From Glaucostegus cemiculus (taxonomy: Eukaryota), in NCBI GenBank assembly GCA_976551045.1, contig CDPCPM010000013.1:20460001-20524000 (forward strand): a stretch of 64,000 nt of DNA, read 5' to 3'. This document shows, piece by piece, positions 3,915 to 64,000 of this stretch. Each line of letters starts with the position of its first letter. The first letter of the stretch is position 1. Made by a program: the position numbers and the translations under genes. The notes under the pieces are model-generated. The model searched no databases, was not told the DNA's origin, and saw nothing but the letters and a program-made list of their open reading frames with translations.

Positions 3915-4125
3915 AACACCAACCTGACTTGGAAGTATATATCATTTTTGTCATTCTTGCTGGCTTTAGATCCTGGAACTCCTTAATGATCTACATTGTG
4001 GGAATACCTTCTCAAGGATTGCAGCAGTTTAAGAAGGTGGCTCACCACTACTTTCCGAAGGCAATTAGTAATGGACAATAAATGCTGGCCTTGCCAGTTA
4101 TAGTCACATCCTGAAAACTGAATAA
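3915..4125 (+). mobile_element. 3' tail of a CR1/L2-group LINE
   Basis: gcagcagtttaagaaggtggctcaccac...aataaatgctggccttgccag. The same tail occurs inverted at 6020-6230 and direct at about 46800-47010. Confidence 0.65.
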
Positions 4126-4850: not shown

Positions 4851-5099
4851 ATACCCTTAGTATCAGTGAAAAATAGTCTGAACCATGACAGAGTTGAATC
4901 AGTTTAAGTACGCTCATGTTACATCAAGAACCATTCACACTCAGGTTCCCATGATCATTTACACATATCATTTCAGCCAAATCCTTCCCACCTCCAATAT
5001 AGACCTCTCCCATAAGGCAATACTGTTAGTTTTAATTGCCTATAACCACTAGAAAAGGCCTCACATTTGATCTAATTCACCGTACTTAGCTCACTACTA

Positions 5100-5680
5100 C
5101 TTAGACAGTCCCTCAGGGTCGAGTGTGACCTGCTTCCACTCCAGTTCTATGGGCAGTAACACGAATGACAAATCCAATGTGCAGTCTTACGTACTGTGCC
5201 TCTGGTGGGGCAGGAGGTGATTTGTGGGTTCTTAATCCACTCTGCCATTGTCAATTAGCCTCGGCGAAAAGCTCAAGTGTCTTCCTAAATGCTCCTACTG
5301 CGTTTTGAATTGTTACATGCTGGAGATTCTTGTGAGTTAATGAGAATGTTACATTATTTTCAATAATGTTTTGGAGCTTTTTGACCCCCCAAAAACTTCT
5401 TACCGTGATCGAGCTTGGAATAGAGTGCCTGTTTTAGGGGTCTAGTATCAGGCATGCAAATAATGTAACCTACCTATCAGAGCTGGCAGAGCAAAAATAC
5501 TCTCTAACACTGGTACACGTATCCTGCCAATAGATTTGGAGCATTCTCTGGTGTCCTAATGTCCCTGCTATAAGTAGTCCATGTCACTGGAAGCATTCAG
5601 GAGGGTAGGGATCACTGATGTCTACAATGAGCCTATTGCCAAATCTTTGCACCCTTTCTTCTTCAAGTGGTCATAGGCTG
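5100..5680 (-). mobile_element. RTE-clade LINE 3' fragment, degraded
   Basis: Colinear similarity to 16790-17330; 3'-end motif cagtccctcagggtcgagtgtgacctgcttccactcc. Confidence 0.6.
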
Positions 5681-5725
5681 TTGTAGTGCATTAATGGTGG
5701 AGGTAAATAATGGGGTTAGCAGAGA

Positions 5726-5948
5726 AAATTAGAGGCTTGGTATCTGAAGTGGCTGACTCAACTCCTGACAGCCCAAGATCTTTCTCACTATCTACAAGGC
5801 TCAAATCAGAAATGCAATGGAATACTCTCCACTTGCTTGGATGAGGTCAGCCAACAACTTTCAAGAAGCTTCATGCCACTGAGAACAAAGTACCCCATTT
5901 GATTGGCACCCTATTAACCAACCTAGACATTCATTCCTTCACCACCAG
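5726..5948 (+). mobile_element. CR1/L2-group LINE RT fragment; inverted partner of 6389-6610
   Basis: About 84% identical to the reverse complement of 6389-6610; encodes MEYSPLAWM-like sequence. Confidence 0.8.
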
Positions 5949-6019
5949 TATAGACCTCTCCCATACTGTAGATGTGAATGTGATCCTTGCTTTATGGGTC
6001 TTCTCATGAACTTTCTTTT

Positions 6020-7530
6020 AATATGTTCATTTTTGGGATTTGGGCATCACCAGCAAGGTTTAAATTTAATCCTGTTTCTAACTGCTCTTGAGAGGATGGC
6101 CATCTTCTTGAACAGCTGCAATCCTTCTGGTGAAGTGCCTCTCACAGTACTGTTGGGTAAGGAGATCTAGGATTTAAACCCAGTGCAGTGAAAGATCAGG
6201 GACATATTTCCAAGTCAGGATAGTGTACAATTTCAAGGGAAATCTGCACAAGGTAGTGTCCCCATGTGCCTGATACCCTTGCTCTTGTCCTTCTTGGTGG
6301 GAAAGCCATGTTTACAAGGTGTTATTGGAGAAGCCTAAGTAAGTAACTCTAGTGCATCTCGTAATGAATACTGCAGGCATTGTGCCCAGGTGGTGGAAGA
6401 AATGAGTGTTTAGGTTGGTTGATGGGGTGATAGTCAAATGGGGTACTTTGTTCTCGATGGTGTGGAACTTCTTGAGAGTTGTTGGCTGACCTCATCCAAG
6501 CAAGTGGAGAGTATTCCATCACACTCCTGAACCGTAGCTTGTAGGTAGTAAAAAAGGCCTTGGGATGTTGGGAGTTGAGTCACCCACTTCAGGTACCAAG
6601 CCTCTAATTTGCTGTGATAGCCCTGGTTATATGGCTAGTCCAATTGTTTCTGGTCAATGGTGACTCCCAGGATTTGGATGGTGGGAGTGGAATGCCACTT
6701 AACATCGAGGGTAGTTAGTTAGATTCTCTTTTGTTGGAATAGTCATTGCTAGGCAGTTTTGTGGCACAAATGTTGCTTGCCACTGATCAGTCCATGCCTG
6801 TAAAAATTGCCTTGGCCTTGCTGTATGAAGACATGGACTGCTTCATTTGCTGAGGGGGTTACAAATGGAATTGAACATGGTTCAATCATCAGCAAGCATC
6901 CCCAATTCTGACTTTATGAAGGAAGGAGGGACACTGATGAAGCAGCTGGGGCACAAAACACTGCCCCAAGGAACTCCTGTAGTGATGTACTAGATTGTCC
7001 TGTGGCAAATACAATAATCTTTGTGTGAGGTATGAATGCAGAATGGGGGTGCTTTTCATTTGATGCTCATTGACTTCAGTTTTATCAGGGCATCCTAATG
7101 CTACACTTGGTCAAGGGCACTCACTTTTACCTCCATTCTAGAACTGTTTGGACCAAGGCTATGATGAGGTTCATATCTGAGTCATCCTAGTTATTGATGT
7201 GTAAGTGCCAATTGATTGCACTTTCAACAATGGCTTTCATAAATTTTCTAATAATTGCGAGTAGATTGATAGGTGGGTAATTAGTCAGATTGGATTTGTC
7301 TTACATTTGATGAATAGGACTTTGCTGGGTGACTTTCCACATTGTTGGATAGATACCAATGTTGTAACGGTACTTGAACAGCTTTACTGGAGGTGCAGCT
7401 GGTCCTGAAGTGTATGCCTTCTGTACCACAACTGGGATGTTGTCTGGTTCCATAGCTATTGCTGTTTCCAGTGCTCTCACCCATTTCTTGGGGCTTGCTT
7501 TATGCAGTGGGTGCAGATTGGCCTTTACAG
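6020..7530 (-). mobile_element. CR1/L2-group LINE, 3' ~1.5 kb, degraded
   Basis: 3' tail at 6020-6230. ORF 7301-7606 contains RT-proximal motifs (EPDNIP..V.K, GIYPTMWK). Confidence 0.75.
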
Positions 7531-15044: not shown

Positions 15045-16522
15045 GTTCTACATTATTGACTTATAGCATAAAAATCAGTCATAAAACTTGATAAGGAAAC
15101 AATGGTGCCATAAGCTGACTCAGTGCAGGAGACAGGAGGGTGATAGTTACGCTCCCTGGGACCTAAATTAAATGTTAGTGGATCCATACAACTGCCAAAA
15201 CAGTCACATTATTCTCTTAGAGTAAAGTTCCACTATCCTGCCTCATCCCCTACCCCTCCGGAACCACAGGGTAGGATGCTAGCTAAGCCATTTCAGTGGT
15301 CATAGCCCAGGGATTTCCCTGAGCTGGTGAGGATGGTAGATTTTTTTCAGGGGCACTTTGAGAACATCCTTGGAGTGTTTTCTCTGTTCTCCTGGAAATC
15401 TCGTGCCACAATGGAGCTTGGAGTAGAGTGCTTGTTTCGGGAGTGTGGTGTTAGTCCTCGATGCTGGGGATGTTGGCTAGAGAAAGGGGACATCCTGCAA
15501 GTAGGTTTGTAAGATTTTGTGGAAGCAGAGCACCACTGATATCCTGTGTGCATCAGTGAGTTCCCAAATGTGAAATATGATTCAAGTCATTTGTCGCTAC
15601 TCAGAGGTTAAGAAAGTGGGAGTAGCAATGTCCTTCACCTCTATGAACAGAGCAGTCTAAACATGATGAAAGGCTGGAGCTCTGCTCACAGAAACTGAGG
15701 AATGTTTTTGTCACCACTCAGATACGAAAGGGTTAGCCTTAAGGTGCATTGTTCCTCGTGCATCTGGATGTAGGAACATGACTCCCAAAAGACTTTTGGG
15801 CTAAGCCAGAGCCCATCTCGCCTTCCTCCTTTGAGCTCCTTGGAAAATTGCTTTGCAGTGCATTTCCCTTATTCTAAATGGAATCACAGTTAAAACAATC
15901 AATTTTTATCAATAAACAGAGGCAAATTTGAACTCTGTGCACACAAAGTCTGCTACTACTTTTATCTAAAGTTTTCTGGCCTGTAACGTGCTCAGCTCCA
16001 GTTGACACCCAAACAAAAATGCAAAGCTTTGATGATCCCCTCAAGTTAGACTGCTGCAGGGTGCAGTATATCTTCATGCCTTTCCTGTCCAAGGGCGACA
16101 GTGAGTTTTAATTCCTTTGGTTTAATTCAGTTTCGCAAGAGAGCCAGCAATTGGGTGCTGCACATAAATTAATATCACCACTGTCTGCTCCATATGCTCT
16201 GTGTATACCCAGGTCACCATCATGGAAACTGTAGGTCAAAATTCATTATCATGGACTATTATATTAAACTATTCAGTGGCTTAGCTAGCATCCTACCCTG
16301 TGGTTCTGGAGGGGTGGGGGATGAGGCAGGATAGTGGAACTTTACTCTAGGAGACTGTTGTGTCTGTTCTGGCAGTTGTATAGATCCACTAACACTTAAT
16401 TTAGGTCCCAGGGAGAGCAATCGTCACCCGACTGTCTCCTGCACTGAGTCAGCTTATGGCACCATTGTTTCCTTATCACGTTTTGTGGTTGATTTTTATG
16501 CTATAAGTCAATAATGTAGAAC
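15045..16522. repeat. Long inverted repeat: 246-bp arms (15045-15290 and 16277-16522) with a 986-bp spacer
   Basis: Manual alignment of the left arm to the reverse complement of the right arm gives 225/246 identical and no indels (gttctacattattgac...gctagctaagcca / tggcttagctagc...gtcaataatgtagaac). Confidence 0.97.
15288..15525 (-). mobile_element. RTE-clade LINE fragment; direct duplicate of 16991-17225
   Basis: About 88% identical (29 substitutions, one 3-bp indel) to 16991-17225. Homologous to the RTE fragment near 5300-5550. Confidence 0.75.
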
Positions 16523-16789
16523 TTTAGAAGTATATATTATGCAAATAAATTTCTAGAAATGATTTATCAAAGTTGTGTCTTTGTAAAACTGATCAAGTAA
16601 TTTCCAAACAGAAAGTTTGATGGAACAAACAGTGAAATAGGAGTGAAGTGGATTTCCATTGTTTAAAGCGACATCTATGTTCAATGCTTTATTAAATATC
16701 ATGTAAATATGCTATGTTTTTAATGGAAATAGCAAACTATTATTTTCACAACTATTACCCATAAACTTTTCTATGTAGTCATTATTTCA

Positions 16790-17450
16790 GGGTGGAGGAT
16801 CATTTGCTTACACCAGTTCTGTGGCCTCTGAAGTGACAAATGAGTCCGATGTGGCATCCAAAGGCTGCCACGGGTGGGGCAGGATGTGCTTGATGGGTGG
16901 GAAGATGAATTGTTTGGGATGGTGCTAATTGCACTTGGCCTCCAGTCTCTTAGAGCCTGTTGTTCGGTGCCTTTGAATGTTTTTTTTAAACCATTTGAGT
17001 GGTCAGAGTCCAGGGATTCTGCTGAGCTGGGGAGGATGTTAGATTTTCTTCAGGGGCATTTTGAGAACATCCTTAGGGTGTTTTCTCTGTTCTTCTGGAA
17101 ATCTCGTGCCATGATAGAGCTCAAAGCAGAGTGCTTGTTTCGGGAGTCTGGTGTTAGTCCTTGATGCTGGGGACGTTGCCTAGGGAAAGGACACATCCTG
17201 CAAGATTTGTTAGATTTTGTGGAAGTGGTATTGCTATTACTCCTCCAAAACTTTGAGATGCAAGTTGTCCATGCATTAGAAACATACAGGAGAATAGGGA
17301 TTCCTGCTGCTTAATAGACAACAGACATAATGCTCAGATTGGGATCTTGGTCATACTTTCCCTCAGCCAACTGAAGGCTATGCTGGCAGACTAGTGGCAG
17401 CGGTGAATTTAGTCATCATTGTTTGTCCTCATTGCGAAATGACTCCTGAG
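16790..17450 (-). mobile_element. RTE-clade LINE 3' fragment
   Basis: Minus strand resembles the RTE RT C-terminal region (RLPKQAL, ...KDVLK). Homologous to 5100-5680. Confidence 0.65.
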
Positions 17451-20339: not shown

Positions 20340-22920
20340 GGTAGTACACTCAGGATTGCTCCCAAAGCCATGTATTAGTAAGAACAGAGAGAGGGCAATG
20401 GATAAGATGAATATGTGACTAGAGGGATGGCACAGGAGAGTGGGATTTAGATTCCTGATGTATTGGCACTGGTTCTGGGGAAGATGGGACCTGAGAAAGC
20501 TGAATGGATAGGATCAGGACTGATATCCTTGTTTTTGGTGCTGGCTAATGCAGTTAAGGAAGGTTTAAATTAGTATGGCATTAAAATTGTATAGGTGCAA
20601 TGAAAAGCTTACTTGCAGCAGCATCGCACGCACATAACATCATATAAGCAGCATTCGCAAGAAAAACATAAAATTAAACATAAATTATACACACTTTACA
20701 AGAAAGAACACAATTAGAACAAAAAAAGTCCATTTTAGTGCAAAGTGATCAAAGTGGCCGTAGTGTTGCTAAATTATAGTGCTTAGGGTTTTGCCAGAAA
20801 AATGCTAAAGATAAAGAGTTCTATATCTAAATGTACATAGTATCCAAAAACAGGGTTGATGAACTAACAGCACAAAAAGAGATTAACAAGTACAATTTAA
20901 TAGCAGTTATAGAGACATTGTAACAAAAAGATCAAAGCTGGGAATTCAGTGCTCGGGGGTATTTGACTTTTAGGATGTGGAAACAAAAAGGTAGCTTTGC
21001 TCATCAGAGATAAAATAAATACAATAGTGAAAGATACAGAGTCCATTTGGGTAAAGATAAAAGAATAGCAAGGGAAAGAAGGAATAGTGTATAAACCCCA
21101 AACACTGGTCATACTGTAGGAAGGAATATAAATCAAGAAATAATTGGGGGCTGGTAGAAAGAATAGTGCATTAATCATGGATGACTTTAATCTTCATGTA
21201 AATTGGAGTAATTAAATTGGAAATGTTAACCACAAAAATTAATTCATAGATTGTATTCTGGATAGTTTCCTAGAGCAATATATTAAGGAGCCTACCAGGA
21301 AAAACACTATTTTGGATCTGGTAATGTATAATGAAATAGGTTTAAAATGATCTCAAATTTTAAAAAAACTCTGGGAAATGGTGATCACGGCAAAAATTCA
21401 GCTTTATTGTAAAAATCTTGGGTCTAAAGCAACTGTGTAGAACTTAAATAATGGGAAGCACAAATGAATTAGGATAGAGTTGGCTAAAGTGGGCATGCCA
21501 AACGGATTAACAAATCAGATAAGAGACATGGAATCCTAGAGATAGTGGCCAAAATGATAGTGCATACTGTATATTCTTCCAAAAGTCCTCAGCTATGGAA
21601 GGACTAGAAGTTTGCCAATCGGATATACTAATTCAAAAAGGGCAGAAGGCACAAAACAGGTAATAACAGGCTACTTAGTCTAATACCTATTATTGGAAAG
21701 TCATAATCTGATCAAGCAGAGGTAGCATGACTTTATGAAGGGGAAATCATGTCTGACAAATGTACTAGAATTATGTGAGTTCATCAGTTAGAGTGGATTT
21801 TCAAATGTGTTTGACAAGGTGCCATGCAAAAGGTTACTTAGCTAAATAAGAACTCCTGGTGTTGGAGGTAATATATTAGCATGAATGGAGGATTGGTTAA
21901 CAGAAAAGAGCCAGTAGGGATAAGCAGGTCATTTTTGGCTTGATAGCCTGTAACCGTTGTTATGTCACAAAAGTCAGTGCTTGGACTACAGCTGTTTACA
22001 ATGGGTATTAATAATTTACTGAAAGGAACCAAATGTATTGTAATCAAAATCAGGATGATACAAAGGTAAGGAAAAGGCAAACTATGAAGAGGATGCAAAC
22101 AGTTTATGGAAAGATAAGAAAAGTTAAGTGAGAGCGCAAAAGTTGGTAAATGGAACATAATGGGAACTCACTTTGAAAGAAAGAATGATAAAGCAGATTG
22201 TTATTTAAATTTAGGAAGAATGCAGTAAACTGCAGCACAAGGGACTTGGGGGCTCTTGTACATGAAACACAAATAATACAGGTGCAACAAGTTATCAGGA
22301 AGGCTAATGGACTTTTATTTCAAGGGGGTTGGAATAGAAAGAAATATTACCAGCAAAACAATATCTTGAGTACTGTTTATAATTTTGATCCCCTTAGTTA
22401 TGCAGAGATAGATTATCAACGGTGGCAGCTGAGGGAAGGTTACTAAGGATGATCCTAGCTAAGGAGAGTTTTGCCTTATGAAGAAAGGTTGAACAGGTTG
22501 GGTCTGTACTCATCAGAATTTAGGAAAGTAAGAGGTGATCCAAATGAAACACATACAGTATGTTACAGGAAGGGTTAAAAGAGTAAATGCTGTAAGGATG
22601 TTTCCCCTCATGGGAAGAATGACCAGAGGAGATAGTCTCAGAATAATAGGGCATCCATTTAATACTTAGATGAGGAAAAATTTCTAGTCTCAAAAGATTA
22701 TGACTCTTTAGGAATTCCTTGCCCCAAAGGCTCCAGAGGCTGAATCCCTGAGTATATTCAAAGATAACATGGGTAGATTTTTAATCAGTGAGGGAAATGA
22801 AGGGTTTTGAGGATAGAGCAGGAAAGTGAACTTGAGGAACGTTGAATCTGTTGTGATCTTATTGAATGATGAGGCAGGACTGAGGGACTGAATGGCCAAG
22901 TCCTTTTCTATTTCATAGTC
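20340..22920 (+). mobile_element. CR1 LINE, degraded ORF2 (endonuclease + RT) through 3' tail
   Basis: EN motif (IMDDFNLH near 21175), RT motifs (tttgacaaggtgcca near 21810) and CR1 tail at 22840-22920; many stops and frameshifts. Confidence 0.85.
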
Positions 22921-22984: not shown

Positions 22985-23570
22985 TTATTCTAGTCCTCCT
23001 ACCAAACCAAATAACCACATTATTTTCCCTCATTATACTCCATCTGCCACCAACCTGCCCACTCACTCCACCTGTTTATGATCTTTTTTAGATTCTTTTC
23101 TTCCTCCTCACCACTTACTCTCCTACCTTTTTAATTATCAACAAACTTAGATACAATATACTTTGTCTTTTAACCAAAACCATTAATATACATTGCGACT
23201 AGCTGACAACCTAATACTGATCTCTTTGATACTCAACAAAGAACAGCCAACCAATCTAAAAAAGGTCCAATTATTTCCACCTGATTTCTGTCCTTTACCC
23301 AATCTCCTATCCTTACCAAAGTATTACTACTATCTGATGAACCCTAATTTGAGGCAACAGCCTTTTATCTTCTACTTGAAAAAATCCTTATGAAAATTCA
23401 TATATACTACATACACTGGTTCTCTCTTATCTATCCCACTAAATAAAATAATATTAGAAGTATTAAATCACTATTAAATATTGTTATCTACAAGATAGTA
23501 TTAGATTTGTCAAACATGATTTTCCTTGCATAAAGCAGTGTTTACTCTGCTTGATCATATTATGATTTCC
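22985..23570 (-). mobile_element. CR1 RT fragment
   Basis: Minus strand aaatcatgtttgacaaatcta (KSCLTNL) near 23500-23525. Confidence 0.65.
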
Positions 23571-25857: not shown

Positions 25858-26493
25858 AGGTGGATAGGGTAGTTAAGAAAACTTGTGGGATGTTAGCTTT
25901 CATAAATTGAAGGATCGAGTTTAAAAACCACGAGGTAATGATGCAGCTCTATAAAACTCTGGTTAAACCACACTTAGAGTACTGCATCCAGTTCTGGTTG
26001 CCTCATTATAGGAAGAATGTGGAAATGTTGGAAAGGGTGCAGAGGAGATTTACCAGGATGCTGCCTGGTTTAGAGAGTATGCATTATGAGGAGAGACTAA
26101 GGGAGCTAGGGCTTTGCTCTTTGAAGAGAAGGAGGATGAGAGGAGACATGATAGAGGTGTACAAAATATTAAGAGGAATAGATAGAGTGGACAGCCAGCA
26201 CCTCTTTTCCAGGGCACCAATGCTCAAAACAAGAGGGCATGGCTTTAAGGTAATGGGTGGGAAGTTCAAAGGAGATATCAGAGGAAGGTTTTTTATCCAG
26301 AGAGTGGTTGGGGCATGGAATGTGCTGCCTGGGGCAGTGGTGGAGACAGGTGCATTGGTCAAGTTCAAGAGGTTACTAGATAAGCATATGGAGGAATTTA
26401 AAATAGAGGGATAAGTGGGAAGAAGGGGTTAGATAGTCTTAGACGAGGTTTAAAGGTCGGCACACCTGTATTGTGCTGTACTGTTCTTTGTTC
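25858..26493 (+). mobile_element. Young CR1 (HER1-like) 3' fragment
   Basis: ORF 25938-26414 LYKTLVKPHLEYCIQFW...RGDMIEVYKI...TRGH...WNVLP; ends tgtactgttctttgttc. Confidence 0.92.
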
Positions 26494-29105
26494 ATCATTT
26501 CTTTAGTTTACAAAAACATTTTTAATCACTTTAGTTTGGTCACTAGATTGCTTTAATCAGATATATCCTATAGTTGCCTATGAAGGCAATGTATCTTTGA
26601 CTTTTCTTATGTAGAATCACAAAATATGAAAGTATATGAAAAAGGCAAGTGCAGGGTATACTGTAACTCATGTTTTATTTAAGTTTACCCATGGTTAGTG
26701 GGTTTCTATATAATTTTATATGAACACTCCTGCCAAGACATTTCACTGCATAGCACTTTTTTTTTCAGGAGTGAAGTACAATAACAGCATCCTGGTTATT
26801 TCTTTTGGAAATTCAGCCAGTGACTTTGGAACATAATCAGACTTGCATTCCTATGCAATTTCTCCTTCTGGGGCACACAGGATGATGTTAATTCTCAGGA
26901 AGCACCCTTTTGGAGCCTTGCTGGGCAACTTCAATCACACATTGTCCTGAGAGCTACCACTTTTGAACACTCCTGGGACAAAGTTGTCTTCCCAGCAAGC
27001 AGTGGACCTGCCGAAGACATCTGCCAGGGGAGTACATTAATTACCTTCATCCTTCAGGTCCCCAACTTCTACGCTACACTGATGCTAGTTGGACCCTCCA
27101 CCATTCACCTTCTCCCCTACAATCTCCTGCTTTCTCCCAAAGTCCTGATATGCATCTTGTGTCTCTTGCAATGCTACCATTGGCACTCAGAGCACCAGCT
27201 CCTAATTGCACTTGCCCCACAAGCAACATTCAAACTGCCTATCCATGGTTACCTCATCATCAATCAACCTGCCAGTTCATGATACTCTCTCTCCTCATCA
27301 GTCAAACTGCTGATCCCCAAAACATTCCTTGTCAACAACAGCATTCCATCTTCCTGTCTTTGATCTCCCCCTCCCCCTTACCATACAAACTGTTGGTGCC
27401 CAGTATACCCTCCCCCCACCATGCAAGCTGTTGGTAACAGATCTCCAAATGCTTGGCTTCAATAAACATCCATACCTCCCCAGACCAGCCAGCAACAGCA
27501 TAAGCCAGTTAGGTCTGTGACTGCCAGCCATCCCACTGAACCAAATGTCTGAAGAGTCTTTAGTTACATAATGCCATAAAGTAGTTATTGGTTCCCCACA
27601 GCTGTGCTGATCTACTACTTGGGTGCACTAGAATTTCTAGGTATATATCCAATGCATGTTCACTTTGCTGCTGAAGCTAAATATAATGGACAAATTAGTT
27701 ATTGGATAATATCATGTTATTTCTTTTCTGAAATGTTATTATTATTCACAAGTTAAAACCTTGGCTCTTGCATACCTCATGGAGATCACTAATTCATTAT
27801 GGAAGGGTTAAATCAATACATGCACAGTAGCTGTCCAGTGAAAGGTACCAAAATAATTGTTTAAAAAAACCTATAGTTTGTATGTTTGGGATGCCATAAA
27901 TCATGAAATTAGAGGTACATGTTAATGGGTGTAATACGTTAATCATCGGGGAATTTAATAAACATTTGGAGTGCAATCAGAAAAATAACCAGGAATGGAT
28001 CACTACAACATTGAGATTTCAGTGTTTGCATGTGCATGCATGGTAATGGAGAAGTTGTTCTCAAATGGTCTGAGGAATATTGACAAACACCTGTAATTTT
28101 ACTGAACTTTAGCTGCAAAGCTGGGTTGTCATAAGTGCAGTGTAGCTGACACAGATCCAAGTCAGCACCTAAAGGTAGTGAGACCTAGCTTGTGAGCTGG
28201 TACACATAGTGGCACCAGCTCATTTAATGCAGGATTCTGGTGGCAGGGTGATGCAGGTTAGGAGAAAGGCATCAGGACCTTTTTTCTCTGGTTGTGCAAC
28301 ATGAACACCTGCTCCCAGCCACAGCTTTAAATTACACTGATGGTAGGGTGTGGAAAAAAATAAAACTTTAAATAATTTAATTCTTGCTAGAAATAGAATT
28401 TGTGGTCTGGGATGTGTTTAATATCACCCAGCTCACTAATGTCAGTGTAAGTGGGCCTTTAACAAATGCCAAGCTCAAATGCTGGTGAGATCACACCACC
28501 TATTGTTTATAAAATCATATGTGTTCCGTTTCTTTATTTTGATAAGGTGATCACACTTATTACTTCCTCTGCCTCTATCCCTTTTGTGCCTATTTAATTC
28601 TGCTTTCAATCCATCTGAGTGTTCAACTCAATTACTTTTGTAGCATGTGCTCTAAATTCTTATTGCTTTTTCTCCTGAATTTCTTGTAGGATTTTTAAAG
28701 ACAGTCTTAGATTTATGATTTCTAATTTTGAGTACAACCACAAATTGATCTTAGCATTCAGATAGTGTAGTATTTTCGTTGTCGTGAGCATGTGGCCAAG
28801 TAGTCCAGTTTTATGAACAGTTATCACATCAAGTTAAAGTTGTCAAATGCAACCCATGCCTATACCTATTAAAGGGAACTTGTAAGGAGGAGAGGATGGG
28901 GTATCCCAAACTGGTGCATGTCATTCTGTAGTTTATGCAGGTTTGGTGCAAGCCATAGCAGTACATGGAAGAAAGCAAACAACTCAGTTTTCAGACTCTG
29001 ATCTGGACACGTTGGTTCATGATACAGAGAGCAGGAGAGTGTTCCTGTAGGTACCAGGTCTCAGGAAGCCTTGCAGATTTATAAGGACAAAGTTTAAAAA
29101 AAAAT

Positions 29106-31120: not shown

Positions 31121-31370
31121 TGTCAGTTCCAACTCAATCAGCAACAAACCTGAAGCCAATGAAGATCCCTTTAATAGATAAGGGTAGCATGAGGGAGCAG
31201 AGTTATTCTTCTTGTAAGCTGCACAATTCCTATGTGCGATTAACACATGGTGTTCGCTAGATTGTCATAGTTCATTTTGAGCTAGGATAGCCTCAAGTAG
31301 CCTTGCACTAAGATTGGCCAAACTAAGTGCCTATATTGCACAGTGCCAGTGTGCGCATTTGACACATGTA

Positions 31371-31533
31371 GATAAGATTTCTTTATTAGTCACATATACA
31401 TTGACACACACAGTGAAATACATCTTTTTGCATAGTGATTTGGGGGGCAGCCCACAAGTGTCACCATGCTTCCGGCGCCAACATAGCATGCCCACAACTT
31501 CCTAATCTGCATGCCTTTGGAATGTGGGAGGAA
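31371..31533 (-). mobile_element. 3' half of the SINE family at 40937 and 42323
   Basis: Reverse complement of 41070-41232. Confidence 0.85.
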
Positions 31534-31607
31534 GCCAATTGTGCGTTATATTGCAAAAAAAAAGCACACTCAGATTTGAAAACAAAATTGAAACCAAATT
31601 GGCATCT

Positions 31608-34405
31608 ACATAGAACGTAAAACAATACAGCACAGGACAGGCCTTTCAGTTCACAATGTTGTGCCAATCTAATTAAATTAATAATCAAATGCCCAACTAA
31701 ACTAATCCCTTCTACCTAAATATCCATATCCTTACATTTCCTGCACATTCATGTGCCTACCTAAGAGCCTCTTGAATGCCCCTGTCGTATTTGCCTCCAC
31801 CACTACCCCAAGCAGCACACTCCAGGCACTCACCACTCTCTGTGTAAAAAAAAAAATTTACCCCACACATCTCCTTTGAACTTACCCCCTCTCACCTTAA
31901 ATGCATGTCCTCTGGTATTAGGCATTTCAACCCTGGGGAAAACATACTGACTGTCTATCTATGCCTCTCATAATCTTATAAACCTCTATCAGATCTCCCT
32001 TCATCCTCCACCCCTCCAGAGAAAACAACCCTAGTTTGTCCAATCTCTCCTTATAGCACATGCCCTCTAATCCAGGCAGCATCCTGGTAAACCTTGTCTG
32101 TACCCTCTCTAAAGCCTCCACATCCTTTCTATTATGGAGCGACCAGAAATGAACACAATACTCCAGATACATCCTAACCAGAGTTTTATAAGGCTGCAGC
32201 ATAACCTCCTTACTCTTGAACTCAATTCCTAATAAAGGAAAGCATGGCTCCTTTACCACCCTATCAACCTGTGTAGCCACCTTTAGGGAGCTATGAACTT
32301 GGACCCCAAAATCCCTGTGCTCATCAACACTGTTAAGGGTCTTGCGATTAACAGTGTACTGTCTCTTTATATTTGATCTCCCAAGGTGTAACACTTCACA
32401 TTTGGCCAAGTTAAGCTCCATCTGCTATTTCTCCGCCCATATCTGCAACTGATCTATATCCTGCTGTATCCTTTGCTAGTCTTCTACACTATCCACAACA
32501 TCACCAATCTTCATATCATCTGCAAACTTACTTAGCCACCCATGTACATTTTCATCCAAGTCATTTATATACGTCACAAACAGCAGAGGTCCCAGTACGG
32601 ATCCCTGTGGAACACCACTAATCACAGACCTCCAGCTAGAATAAGTTCCATCGACCACTACCCTCTGTCTTTTATGGACAAGCCAATTCTGAATCCAAAC
32701 GGCCAACTCATCATAAATCTCATGCATCTTAATCTTCTAGATGAGCCTCCCATGAAGGACGTTATCAAATGCCTTACTAAAATCCACATAGACAACATCC
32801 ACAGCTCTACCTTCATCAATCACCCTCATCACCTCCTCAAAAACACTGGATCAAGTTAGTGAGACACCACTTGCCCTGCACAATGCCATGCTGACTGTCC
32901 CTAATTGTGCCATGGTTTAACAAATGCTCATAAATTCTATGCTGAAGAATCCTATCCAGTAACTTCTCTACCACTGACGTGAGACTCACCGGTCTATAGT
33001 TTCCAGGAGTATTCCTATTTCCCTTCTGGAATACTGGAACAACATTAGCTACTCGCCAGTCCTCTGGGACCTCGCCTGTTGCTAGAGAGAACATGAAGAT
33101 CTTGGGCAAGACCCCAGCAATCTCATCTCTTGCCTCGCTCAATAACCTGGGCTATATCCCATCGTGCCTTGGGAACTTACCCACCTTAATGCTCTTTTAG
33201 AGACCCAACACTACATCCTTTATCTCGGTGCCCTAGCATATTAGCATGCTACACACTCATCTCCCTGTCCTTCTCCTTAGTAAATACTGATGCAAAGTAC
33301 TCATTTAGGACCTCACCCACATGTTCTGCTTCCAAGTACATGTTCTGTCCTTTATCCTTGAGTGGACCTACCCTCTCCCTAGTTTTCCTCTTTCTCTTGA
33401 TGTATGTATAGAATGCCTTGCTATTCTCTTTAATCCTACTTGCCAAGGACTTTTCATGGACCCTCCTGGCTTTCCTAATTCCCTTCTTTTCTGTCTTCTT
33501 TATAAATCTGAAGGGCTCTGTTTGATCCTGGCTTCCTGAGTTTTACATACATTTCTTTTTTCTTCTTGACTAAATTCACCACCTCTCTTGATATCCAGGG
33601 TTCCCTTACCATGCCATCCTTGTCCTTCCTTCCTACTGGATCACACCTGTCCTGTACTCTGTGCAGTTGGTCTTTAAACACCCTCCACATGTCAGATGTG
33701 GACTTGCCCAAAAATAGCTGTTTCCAATTAACTCTCCCTAGTTCCTGCCTAATGCTCTCATAATTTGCCCTGCTCCAATTTAATACTCTCCTGCAAGGTC
33801 CATACTTATCCTTACCTATAGCTATCTTAAAACTTAAGGAGTTGAGGTCACTGTTCCTGACTGTTCTCTCACTGATAGGTCAGTCACCTGACCAGGCTCA
33901 TTACCAACACCAGGTCCAGTATGGCCCCTTCTCTCATTGGACTATCTACATATTGATTTAAGAAACCCTCCTGGATGCACCTAACAAATTCTGCCCCATC
34001 TAAACCTCTTGCTCTAAGGAGGTCCCAGTTTATATTAGGGAAGTTGAAGTCCCACATGACAACAACCCTATTGGTTTTACACCTTTCCCTAATCTTCCTG
34101 CATATCTGTCCTCAACTTTCCTCTGGCTATTTGTGGGGTGGAGGGGGGGAGGGTGTCTGCAGTATAATCCCATCGGAGTGATTGCACCTTTCTTATTTTT
34201 GAGTTCTATCCATATAGACTCAGTGGACAAGTCCTCCATTGTGTCCTCTCTGCGTGCAGTTGTGATATTGTCCCTGATTAGTAGTGCAACTCCACCCATC
34301 CCCCTCCATCTTTTATCTGCCTCTCTATCTTTTCTCTAAAGCTTCGAAATCCTGGAACATAAAACACCTATTCCTGTCCCTCTCTCAACCAAGTCTCTGT
34401 AATGA
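31608..34405 (-). mobile_element. CR1 LINE with nearly complete but frameshifted ORF2 (APE endonuclease + RT)
   Basis: Consecutive minus-strand ORFs: GGVALLI/ESIWIEL (EN), GNYRPVSLTS, GVPQGSVLGP, FADD, LEYCVHFWS. Confidence 0.95.
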
Positions 34406-40936: not shown

Positions 40937-41232
40937 GGAACAATACGGTAGCATAGTGGTTAGCACAGTGCTTTACAGCGCCAGTGACCTGGGTTCAAAT
41001 CCGCCACTGTCTGTAAGGAGTTTGTATGTTCTCCCCGTGTCTATGTGGGTTTTCTCCGGGTGCTCCGGTTTCCTCCCACATTCCAAAGACGTACAGGTTA
41101 GGAAGTTGTGGGCATGCTATGTTGGTGCCGGAACATGGTGACACTTGTGGGCTGCCCTCCAAAATCACTACGCAAAAGATGTATTTCACTGTGTGTTTCG
41201 ATGTACATGTGACTAATAAAGATCTTATCTTA
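40937..41232 (+). mobile_element. tRNA-derived V-SINE with Rex-like tail
   Basis: A box (tagcatagtgg), B box (gggttcaaatcc), V-domain (gggtgctccggtttcctcccacattccaaagac), tail gtacatgtgactaataaagatcttatctta. Confidence 0.9.
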
Positions 41233-42322
41233 AAAGGACAGTAAGCTTGAAATAATGGGATCTCCATGCTATTTTGTAATTTAGCTAGTCAGGACAATTT
41301 CCAACTTACATGTGACCATCTCCTGCTTTTTCTTTTTTCTTTGCTTAACCCCTTCAAGCTTTATCTGCTTGTTATGCAGTCTGCTGTTCCCAGTTTACTT
41401 TTGGTTAGAAACAGTCGGAGGAAGAGGATCAGCAACAGAATCCTCAGATTTGGGAGGATTATTTGGGAGGCTACACTTAGGAGATCATATCCAACTCATT
41501 AGATTGTACAAGAACCACTATGTTGGATCTGCCTGAAGAACAGTGCATTGAGAGGGTGTGCTCCTACAAGCAGTGTCCTGCAACAGATCTTCCTGCCAAA
41601 TTTATCAGAGAACACACTGCCATTCCAGCATTGCAATGCCTGTTAATGGAAATTGTAAATCTGAAGGCTACCAGTCCTGTTCAAGTCTGATCACAGAAAC
41701 AGGTTTGTGCAAATTACCAGGCAGTAGTTATCCTGTGACAATCAAACAGTCCAATATTTGAACTTGTTACCAATGCAATAGCAGGGCATTGTTGAGGGTC
41801 AAGTATATTCCCTAAATATGTGGCTCTCACAAATCACTACAGCCCCTAATTTCTTTGCCACCAGTTTTTTTGGGTCTGCTATATGTTGCAGATCTGGCAT
41901 CTCTCTGATTTATACCATTGTGTTAAGCAGGTCACTGATGCCTGTTCATCACAACACTTATCCCTACCACTAAAAATCAGAAAAATCCAAGAAGTGTTGG
42001 GTGAAGAATTTCCAAAGGTTCACATCTCTATGAGAAAAGAAATTCCTCCTCATCTCAGCATTAAGTGGGCAATTCTTTACTTTCAGGCTATTGCCATTAG
42101 TTTTAGTTTCACCCATTAGAAAATACGTATTCTCAGTATCTTGCTGAGAGAACAAGGCAATTTGCTTAATCTTTTGTGATGACTCCTTTGTACCTGAAAT
42201 CAATCTTGGGAATCTCCTCTGCACTGCCTCCAAGGATTGTTTATCCTTATTTAGACAAAGAGACCAAAATTGTATGCAGCATTCCTGGCGTGACCTCATT
42301 AAACTCCTGTAAAGTCCTGTTA

Positions 42323-42618
42323 GGCAGGCACAGTAGTGTAGCAGTTAGCGTAACACTATTACAGCATCAACGACCTGGGTTCAATTCCGGCCACTGTCTG
42401 TAAGGAGTTTGTACATTCTCCCCATGTTTGTATGGATTTCCTCTGGGTGATCTGGTTTCCTCCCACATTCCAAAGACGTACAGATTAGGAAGTTGTGGGC
42501 ATGCTATGTTGGTGCCAGAAGCATGGCAACACTTGTGGGCTGCCCCCAGAACACTCTACACAAAAGATGTATTTCATTGTGTGTTTTGATATACATGTGA
42601 TTAATAAAGATATCTTAT
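42323..42618 (+). mobile_element. Second full copy of the same V-SINE, nested in a CR1
   Basis: Colinear with 40937-41232. Confidence 0.9.
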
Positions 42619-42944
42619 TTAAGAGTAGAGCATAACTTCCCCACTTTTGTACTCCATTTCCCTTGCCTTAAAGACCAACATCCCATTAGCATTCCTAATA
42701 GCTTGAGGCCTGCCAGCTTTCTGTGGTTCTTGCACAGCAAGATCTCTCAAAGATCAACATTTATTGGTTCACAATACTGAAATAATATGCTGCATTTCTG
42801 TTCTTCCTACCAAAGTAGATAACTACACATTTCTCCACAATATACTCCTTCTGCTATAGCTTTATCCCACTTATTTAACCTGTTTACATCTATGATAGAT
42901 CTTTGTCCTCTTCAGAACTTACCTTGAGTTCTATCTTTGTAATA

Positions 42945-58596: not shown

Positions 58597-58711
58597 AGTA
58601 CAGCCGTTTTGAGGCAAAAATCCATGACTTGCGGGAACAGATGCTAAATCACAGTATGAGTTCTGGGTCTGGCTCCCTAAGAACCAATCAGAAACGCTCA
58701 TTATATGTAAG
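58597..58711 (+). CDS. DLG2: Internal coding exon of a discs-large MAGUK (PDZ3 C-terminal helix and PDZ3-SH3 linker), most likely DLG2/PSD-93
   Basis: After AG at 58595-58596 the sequence reads (g)AG TAC AGC CGT... = (E)[37 protein letters not shown](R). It ends at a consensus donor AAG|GTAAGT (GT at 58712). Length 115 nt, phase 1 to phase 2. [16 protein letters not shown] is the DLG2-type motif (DLG1 [19 protein letters not shown]3 [19 protein letters not shown]4 NSSLGSGTASLRSNPK). Not in the ORF track because it is a short spliced exon. Confidence 0.93.
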
Positions 58712-62704: not shown

Positions 62705-64000
62705 TTCATTAGATTAGAATATAGTGAAATTAACTCCTTTATTCAAAAAAGGGAGATGGTATGCAGGAATCTCTATGCCTAGTTAACAGTGTCTATCACA
62801 GGGAAAATTTTAGAAGCTGTTTTTAAAGATATTATAGCAAGGCAGTTAGAACAATTCAAGGTAATCAGGCAAAGTCAACGTGGTTTTGTAAAAGGGAAAT
62901 CATGTTTGACCAATTTATTGGAGTTTTTTGATGAAGTATCATATGCTTTGGATAAAAAGGAAACAATTAATGTACTATACTTAGCTTTCCAGGAGGCTGT
63001 TTATGAAGTGCCACATCAAAAGTTATTGTAGAAAATAAGAACTCTGTGTAGGAGGTAAAACATTGGCATGGATAGAAATTTGGTTGACTAACAGGAAACT
63101 CATAAATGGGTCTTTATCTGGTTGGCAAGCTGCAACAAGTCTGCCAGCAGCATCAGCGCTGGGCTCAATATTATATAAAAATGACTTGAAAGAAGGGACC
63201 AAAGGTATGGCTGCTGGGCTTTCTAATGACACAAAGATAGATAGGAAAATAATTTGCTGAAGAGGACAAAGAGCTACAAAGGAATATAGATAGGTCAGGT
63301 GAGTGAGCAAAGATCTTGCAAATGGAGTATAATGTGAAATTATGCATCTTGTGAATAAAAGTAAAGAAGCAGCAAACTATCTAAATGGTGAGAGATTGCA
63401 GAGTTCCAAGGTGCAGAAGAATATGGGTGTGCTCGTGCAAGGTTTGTAAAAGACTAGAATGCCAGCACACCAAGTAATTATGAAAGCTAAAATTATGTTT
63501 TAGTTTATTACTTGGGAAAATACATACAAAACTAGTGTTGCTGTGCCCCAGGATAAAAGGAAGAATGGAGACGAGAGACTGCAGGTGCTGGAACCTGGAG
63601 CAACAAACAATCTGCTGGATGAACTCAGTGGGTCAAACAGCATCTGTGAGAGGGTGCAGGGTTTTGACCCAATGCAGGGTTTCAACCTGCAACATTGACA
63701 ATTCCTTTCCTCCCACAGATGCTGCTCCACATGCTGAGTTCATCCAGCAGATTGTTTGTTGCTCCATAAAAGGAAGTATATAAATGCATTGGAAGTAGTT
63801 CAGAGAGGCATTACAAGACCAATACCTGGAATAGGCCTGTTGTCACATGAGGAAAGATTGGACAGGCTAGGCATGTATCCTATAGAATTTAGAAATGTGA
63901 GCAGCAGCTTGATTCAAACATATACAATTCTAAGGAGTCTTGACAAGGTGGAAAGAATGTCCCTCTTGAGGGCGAACCTAGAACTAGGGGCCACTGTTTA
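62705..64000 (+). mobile_element. CR1 RT fragment running off the window
   Basis: GFVKGKSCLTNLLEFF...YLAFQEA (ORF 62789-63031). Confidence 0.9.
63564..63765. mobile_element. Palindromic Penelope-type unit inserted in a CR1, with 11-bp target-site duplication
   Basis: Same family as 1216-1430. tggagcaacaaacaatctgctggatgaactcag and ctgagttcatccagcagattgtttgttgctcca are exact reverse complements. Flanked by ataaaaggaag at 63553-63563 and 63766-63776. Confidence 0.8.

Follow-up and report, generated by a model that had tools for sequence, protein, structure and literature searches.

How do two long, nearly identical arms that resemble no recognised repeat family come to face each other in what is presumably an intron of Glaucostegus cemiculus, and is the resulting inverted repeat a by-product of DNA repair, a mobile element, or a structure that is kept for a function? 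We addressed these questions in the stretch of DNA that carries the repeat (64,000 nucleotides, referred to below as the 64-kb window).

Structure of the inverted repeat and of the copy beside it

In a self-BLAST of the window, the two arms (Table 1) formed the top non-self match, with an E value of 3e-96. They are identical at 225 of 246 positions and align without gaps, the spacer between them measures 986 nt, and their similarity ends abruptly at both arm ends. Self-comparison thus returned exactly the ungapped 246-bp inverted repeat that had been noticed in a preliminary description. The 21 mismatches consist of 14 transitions and 7 transversions, on the + strand the transitions would correspond to 9 G-U and 5 A-C pairs, and the perfect runs are 33, 47, 33, and 30 nt long; the mismatch classes, the nine G-U pairs, and the perfect blocks given in the preliminary description were all reproduced by count. 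The predicted fold of a single right arm does not stand out from that of shuffled sequence (z=-0.07; 200 shuffles).

No third copy of the arm was found in the 64-kb window, where the best other match in nhmmer --max had an E value of 0.13, and the whole window was without Rfam and tRNA matches. None of the 32 frames of at least 30 aa over the arms and spacer matched Pfam, the longest stop-free frame in this region being 79 aa, and no direct repeat of at least 3 nt was present within +-6 nt of the outer arm ends. These results agree with the earlier statements that the window harbors no further arm, the spacer no transposase, and the outer ends no target-site duplication. An old, short target-site duplication lost by decay is possible. 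With regard to other traces of the arm sequence, a very faint similarity was observed at 28192-28323 (E=0.13). Of 300 shuffles, about 1% equal its score, for a region that had been picked first, and the match could be fortuitous or a remnant of an ancient repeat.

The preliminary description had regarded the repeat as a stand-alone structure of unrecognised sequence. The arm indeed matches no recognised family, but it is half of a two-part local duplication, as the spacer opens with 235 nt of a direct copy of 16987-17225, a segment beyond the right arm. The left arm runs into this direct copy over 7 nt, and the chance of a junction match of at least 6/7 is approximately 0.002. The region 15045-15525 is therefore a single 481-bp unit composed of two nearby pieces (246 and 242 in size), the first of which is reversed.

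The second piece is derived from a LINE, and the direction in which it was copied can be read from its flanks and from a third, diverged LINE copy at ~5100-5710. Outside 15284-15525, LINE similarity is absent at both ends (13% and 73% of shuffles score as high), whereas LINE sequence extends past both ends of the neighbour. An anchor spacing of 54 nt is found in both 15284-15525 and 16987-17225, in contrast to 86 nt in the third copy, and the two sequences also have an identical in-frame stop. The close pair is identical at 147 of 169 positions, whereas each member against the third copy gives 96/145 and 94/145. When 152 columns were grouped, 49 united the close pair against the third copy, and 7 and 8 supported other groupings. 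Because of the shared deletions and stop, and because the neighbour is the only one of the two embedded in LINE sequence, we conclude that 15284-15525 is the local copy of its neighbour. The third copy served as the outgroup and is the sole polariser of the shared deletions, and with this one outgroup, a deleted LINE subfamily that was inserted twice is formally possible.

We take the relic at 16780-17430 to be RTE-like on the basis of its motifs, a clade confirmed by no tool, and the designations "RTE-like" and "L2/CR1-like" are likewise provisional labels for LINE sequences. In searches for a clade name, protein homologue searches found no match, a library search gave four unnamed matches built of short repeated stretches, and Atlas gave weak hypothetical clusters only (0.91 and 0.83, with low recognition). 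The LINE frames had no credible match in Pfam.

Table 1. Positions of the features discussed, in window coordinates; M1 and M2 are the two histories described in the text.
Feature	Position	Strand	Remarks
Left arm	15045..15290	-	Inverted counterpart of 16277-16522; copy under M1, original under M2; inner end overlaps start of direct copy
Junction microhomology between two donors	15284..15290	.	7/7 to arm donor, 6/7 to 16987-16993
Direct local copy (R) of LINE relic 16987-17225	15284..15525	+ (LINE sense = - strand)	86.4% identity in 242 columns with a single 3-nt gap
Remaining spacer	15526..16276	.	Non-coding; single-copy in window (no other copy below E=0.26); no Pfam match; best Rfam 24.6 bits vs cut-off of 90
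Right arm	16277..16522	+	Donor under M1; sequence matches no recognised repeat family
Decayed LINE relic holding donor 16987-17225	16780..17430, may reach ~17660	-	Resembles third copy ~5100-5710 on both donor flanks; 0/300 shuffles reach either score
Host-gene exon, DLG family	58597..58711	+	PDB DLG4 residues 393-431, E=2e-12; AG/GT borders; 42 kb downstream of right arm

A candidate two-donor repair event

The two duplications are compatible in age. Differences were counted at 21 of 246 positions in the inverted pair and at 29 of 232 in the direct pair (Fisher p=0.18), corresponding to a pooled divergence of 10.5% (50 of 478 columns). Both pairs display an excess of transitions, and CpG decay is present. 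Faster decay of one of the arms was considered and rejected, the AT-ward differences between the arms (13 vs 6) being not significant (p=0.17).

Together with the common junction, our results make it likely, and we hold this with good confidence, that the repeat is a neutral two-donor repair duplication that arose in one microhomology-mediated template-switch event. We envisage a single germline event of the SDSA/MMBIR type, which would have been followed by neutral decay. In the history designated M1, DNA broken somewhere between 15044 and 15526 would have been filled in with 481 bp from two donors 0.75 to 1.7 kb away. Copying would have proceeded from 16522 to 16277 in the reverse orientation, switched at the 7-nt microhomology, and then proceeded forward from 16987 to 17225. 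Either both broken ends would have primed synthesis, with tails of ~240 nt annealing at the microhomology, or one end would have switched twice. In the history designated M2, the left arm would be the original, and the polymerase would have jumped from it to 16987, copied to 17225, returned through the spacer and arm in reverse, and resumed at 16523, leaving the spacer flipped. M1 is the simplest history, M2 is equally short, with three new junctions in each, and both represent the same class of event. The ancestral joint that we reconstruct has a 3-nt overlap under M1 and likewise under M2. GC continuity leans weakly to M1; GC continuity, the 3-nt overlaps, and the weak match at 28192-28323 do not separate the two histories.

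Events of this kind have been described in the human genome. In the available text of Pace, Sen, Batzer and Feschotte 2009 (PMC2671141), 824 human proximal repair-mediated duplications (RD) of up to 619 bp with donors within 5 kb are reported, and cases are also described in chicken and zebrafish. Chimeric acceptors, listed in Table S1 of that study, account for 20 of 1,136 duplicons, and in the five with both donors local, the donors are 289 to 3,432 bp apart. A poly(A/T) tail was present in none of 39 inspected proximal duplications vs 17 of 29 distant ones, and one inverted example is given (ACSBG2).

The insert described here resembles these duplications, as far as the available text of PMC2671141 describes them, in its length (50 to 619 bp in that study, 481 bp here), in the proximity of its donors (less than 5 kb away on the same chromosome; here gaps of 986 and 1,461 nt from copy to donor, with 464 bp between the donors), and in having a chimeric acceptor joined at donor-donor microhomology (here 15284-15290). 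They are intronic and without poly(A/T), and the same applies here, with no A/T run of at least 5 within 20 nt of either insert end. Their outer breakpoints display microhomology, filler, or deletion, and in our case there are 3-nt overlaps only, under either history, the overlap at the insert borders being at most 3 nt. They have one other genomic copy, and here one other copy is present within the 64-kb window. On the other hand, the duplications of Pace et al. break up an annotated transposon and were verified against orthologous sites that lack the insert, whereas ours is described from a single genome. The genomes surveyed, again according to the available text, were without cartilaginous fish, and a word search of that text did not return the words "hairpin," "inverted," or "gene conversion." In literature that was mostly open access, the phrase "repair-mediated duplication" together with shark, skate, or cartilaginous was absent among the matches listed. 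The length, the donor distances, the lack of a poly(A/T) tail, and the joint at 15284-15290 all fit a chimeric duplication of the Pace type.

Two further systems are related, as judged from the available text of each report. The complex germline MMBIR insertions (MMB-TI) of Osia et al. 2021 (PMC8421209) also involve a reverse copy followed by a forward template, are joined at microhomology or at microhomeology with one mismatch, and accumulate as germline variants. They differ in that their templates were sought within ~100 bp, whereas those considered here are 0.75 to 1.7 kb away and ~240 nt long, and the event itself is old. The local n-jump clusters of the PCAWG study by Li et al. 2020 (PMC7025897) likewise represent phased local copy-and-paste with inverted and non-inverted junctions, and M2 would be a three-jump in their terms. 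These clusters differ in being somatic and in ranging from the kilobase scale upward. A single locus is of little weight in itself, and its interest would be that of a cleanly preserved trace of repair synthesis from two donors. The subtype with two local donors is the rarer one (5 of the 1,136 human duplicons, according to the available text of PMC2671141), and the lineage lies outside that survey.

Retention of the duplex and other origins of the repeat

The DLG-family exon listed in Table 1 was found by eye among 342 + strand frames in five sub-regions. Short-motif scans and splice-site scans overlooked it. As the exon was found by eye only, further exons in the window are possible; none was found between the arms. 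The preliminary description had taken the + strand as the sense strand of DLG2. The orientation is in accord with the exon, whereas the PDB matches are to DLG4, and DLG2 is the paralogue that we assume. From the + strand exon, we infer that both arms lie in one transcript. A search of mostly open-access literature did not return a paper joining DLG2, intron, inverted repeat, and RNA editing.

In such a transcript, the arms are predicted to pair over their full length, forming a near-continuous 246-bp helix on the sense strand. The predicted arm-to-arm energy is -431 kcal/mol on the + strand and -419 kcal/mol on the - strand, and the pre-mRNA duplex of ~250 bp that had been proposed is predicted as stated. 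The two arms contain 79 and 54 adenosines. The intronic duplex is probably a by-product and, like many other inverted repeats, an ADAR substrate. Editing of the arms is plausible because the brain of the elephant shark is heavily hyper-edited, with 200,171 unique hyper-editing sites, of which 81% are in repeats, in the available text of Porath et al. 2017 (PMC5625713). The intronic ADAR substrates described there are also long, near-perfect duplexes of two inverted copies in one pre-mRNA. In contrast to them, the arms here lie outside recognised repeat families, and the duplex is a predicted one. The locus illustrates how an inverted repeat of unique sequence, and hence intronic dsRNA, can arise without a transposon family. 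With respect to the recurrent spacer inversion proposed in the preliminary description, inverted repeats are reported to be less unstable when they are further apart or more diverged, long single-stranded DNA being the exception (PMC10164571, in its available text).

This raises the question of whether the product of the repair event has been kept by selection or conversion, either as a functional RNA duplex (for editing or for splicing of the host intron) or as a duplicated enhancer. We consider this unlikely, although several observations are in its favor. These are the near-continuous helix predicted on the sense strand, the heavy hyper-editing in elephant shark brain (PMC5625713, in its available text), and the four perfect runs of at least 30 nt. 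The longest of these, the 47-nt block (15089-15135 / 16432-16478), contains consensus motifs for AP-1, SOX, and GATA, which were chosen post hoc. The two AP-1 sites in the arms are the only 2 of 12 in the window with SOX and GATA motifs within 40 nt, and by its motifs the block is a possible enhancer. Against retention for a function, the arms do not differ significantly in divergence from the direct pair (p=0.18), the region between the arms yielded no exon, with the sole exon found lying 42 kb away, and of six further inverted pairs examined in the window, one, a longer LINE pair, has a lower duplex energy. The ratio of G-U to A-C pairs is 9:5 (p=0.42), and a strand bias toward G-U was rejected as not significant.

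The distribution of the mismatches was another point raised in the preliminary description, which had claimed that they are clustered. The perfect blocks are real, but the clustering is weak. The sum of squared runs gave p=0.04 with the terminal runs and p=0.30 without them, p=0.26 after adjacent mismatches were merged, and p=0.16 without the six sites in CpG context. Merging adjacent changes or removing CpG sites hence abolishes the clustering that retention would draw upon. The count of runs of at least 30 nt gave p=0.0008, with a threshold that was picked after seeing the data. Gene conversion from arm to arm is unsupported after these corrections (p=0.16 to 0.30). The slightly higher similarity of the arms compared with the direct pair, together with the one test at p=0.04, would permit a degree of conversion or constraint. 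Read by itself, the sequence gives no sign of selection for the duplex. A neutral duplication, which the preliminary description had given as a fallback, is the most likely state.

Origins other than a repair duplication or its retained form have, taken together, little probability. Sharp ends, arms of equal length, and a total length of 1.5 kb would be expected of a non-autonomous element that ends in long inverted repeats (MITE, foldback, DIRS-like, or Penelope-like) and belongs to an uncatalogued family. We regard such an element as very improbable, as the target-site duplication (at least 3 nt, sought up to +-6 nt around the outer ends) and any coding match (Pfam, 0/32 frames) are absent, and an element leaves unexplained why the spacer begins with a copy of DNA from beyond the right arm. 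DIRS-like elements contain an internal region complementary to their termini. No such complement was found here, 42 to 73% of 300 shuffles scoring equally in all four comparisons. Penelope-like elements carry a hammerhead ribozyme in their terminal repeats and an RT/GIY-YIG frame; Rfam identified no hammerhead here, and there was one loose match to the core pattern in the spacer near 15695.

In twin priming, the 5' part of the product is inverted and is followed by a 3' part in the sense orientation. Many LINE relics are present in the window, and a LINE enzyme that reverse transcribed + strand intronic RNA in this manner would account for the order seen on the + strand (an inverted upstream piece and a sense downstream piece, with 464 nt missing). 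The order fits a + transcript only; for read-through RNA from the - strand of the LINE itself, twin priming was rejected, as the order of the pieces is wrong. For + strand RNA, we judge twin priming to be just as improbable as an element, as poly(A/T) and a target-site duplication are both absent, and the insert lies 1 to 2 kb from its source, a setting in which 39 of 39 inspected duplications were tail-free (PMC2671141, in its available text). An assembly artefact has a negligible chance of being the explanation, since ~10% divergence (50/478) with an excess of transitions and loss of CpG reflects evolutionary decay and not collapse or read error, and the window contains 0 N.

A second inverted copy and other repeats in the window

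A second inverted copy is located 9 kb away. There, 5713-5946 repeats 6389-6623 in the inverted orientation (234 bp, 83%), the two being identical at 160 of 192 positions, vs 108 and 102 with a third family copy. The left copy adjoins a LINE relic, RTE-like by our labeling, at the 5' end of the relic and runs via a microhomology of ~12 nt into a short direct copy (5935-5972) of ~4982-5030, with a score of 34 vs a maximum of 24 in 2,000 shuffles. The donor of the short copy is DNA on the far side of the RTE-like relic. We infer that a LINE was inserted here with a long target-site duplication and that its 5' junction was closed by a snap-back fill. A junction class of the snap-back type has been reported for R2-mediated insertions (PMC11371274, in its available text). 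The pair 5713-5946 and 6389-6623 also includes a perfect run of 43 nt, which is unusual for its divergence (p=0.003) and may represent conversion.

The two events (246 and 234 bp, 9 kb apart) each adjoin an RTE-like piece and each have junction microhomology into a second local copy. With two events in 11 kb, one feature of this region may be beyond the ordinary. This raises the possibility, which we consider unlikely, that the genome makes or keeps inverted repair copies of ~240 bp, beside RTE-like LINEs, far more often than the vertebrates surveyed. Giant neuronal introns would then be seeded with locus-private dsRNA independent of repeat families, and some of the hairpins, including the one reported here, could be homogenised by conversion, edited, or duplicated enhancers. 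Densities of 0.08 to 0.65 per Mb of transposon DNA have been published for such duplications (PMC2671141, in its available text). At the human rate, ~0.04 events are expected in 64 kb, a value to be read with the human count as a minimum, with the first event as one that was selected for, and with slow substitution keeping old events visible. The locus reported here would be of greater interest if such copies are common in sharks and rays, or if its arms are edited, polymorphically inverted, or homogenised.

Other repeats were also observed in the window. A dispersed, self-palindromic repeat of ~185 bp occurs at 1243-1428 and 63596-63766, with arms of 80 to 88% identity and loops of 2 to 55 nt, and partial copies are found near 2850, 20270, 29140, and 29600. 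Judging from their palindromic structure, these repeats would form hairpins alone in pre-mRNA. A direct pair at 40973-41236 and 42359-42625 (86%, 1.1 kb apart) has a third copy at 31369-31537 (90% and 86%), and the pair is therefore probably a SINE-like family rather than a local copy. The longest LINE relic in the window is at 31800-34340 on the - strand, with frames of up to 165 aa and a Pfam match to RVT_1 (E=4e-5). An inverted LINE pair at 25896-26348 / 31792-32243 (71%, 5.4 kb apart) has a predicted duplex energy below that of the reported repeat. Short inverted pairs less than 2.1 kb apart are found at 21695-21767 / 23499-23570 (81%) and at 3916-4041 / 6099-6226 (69%).
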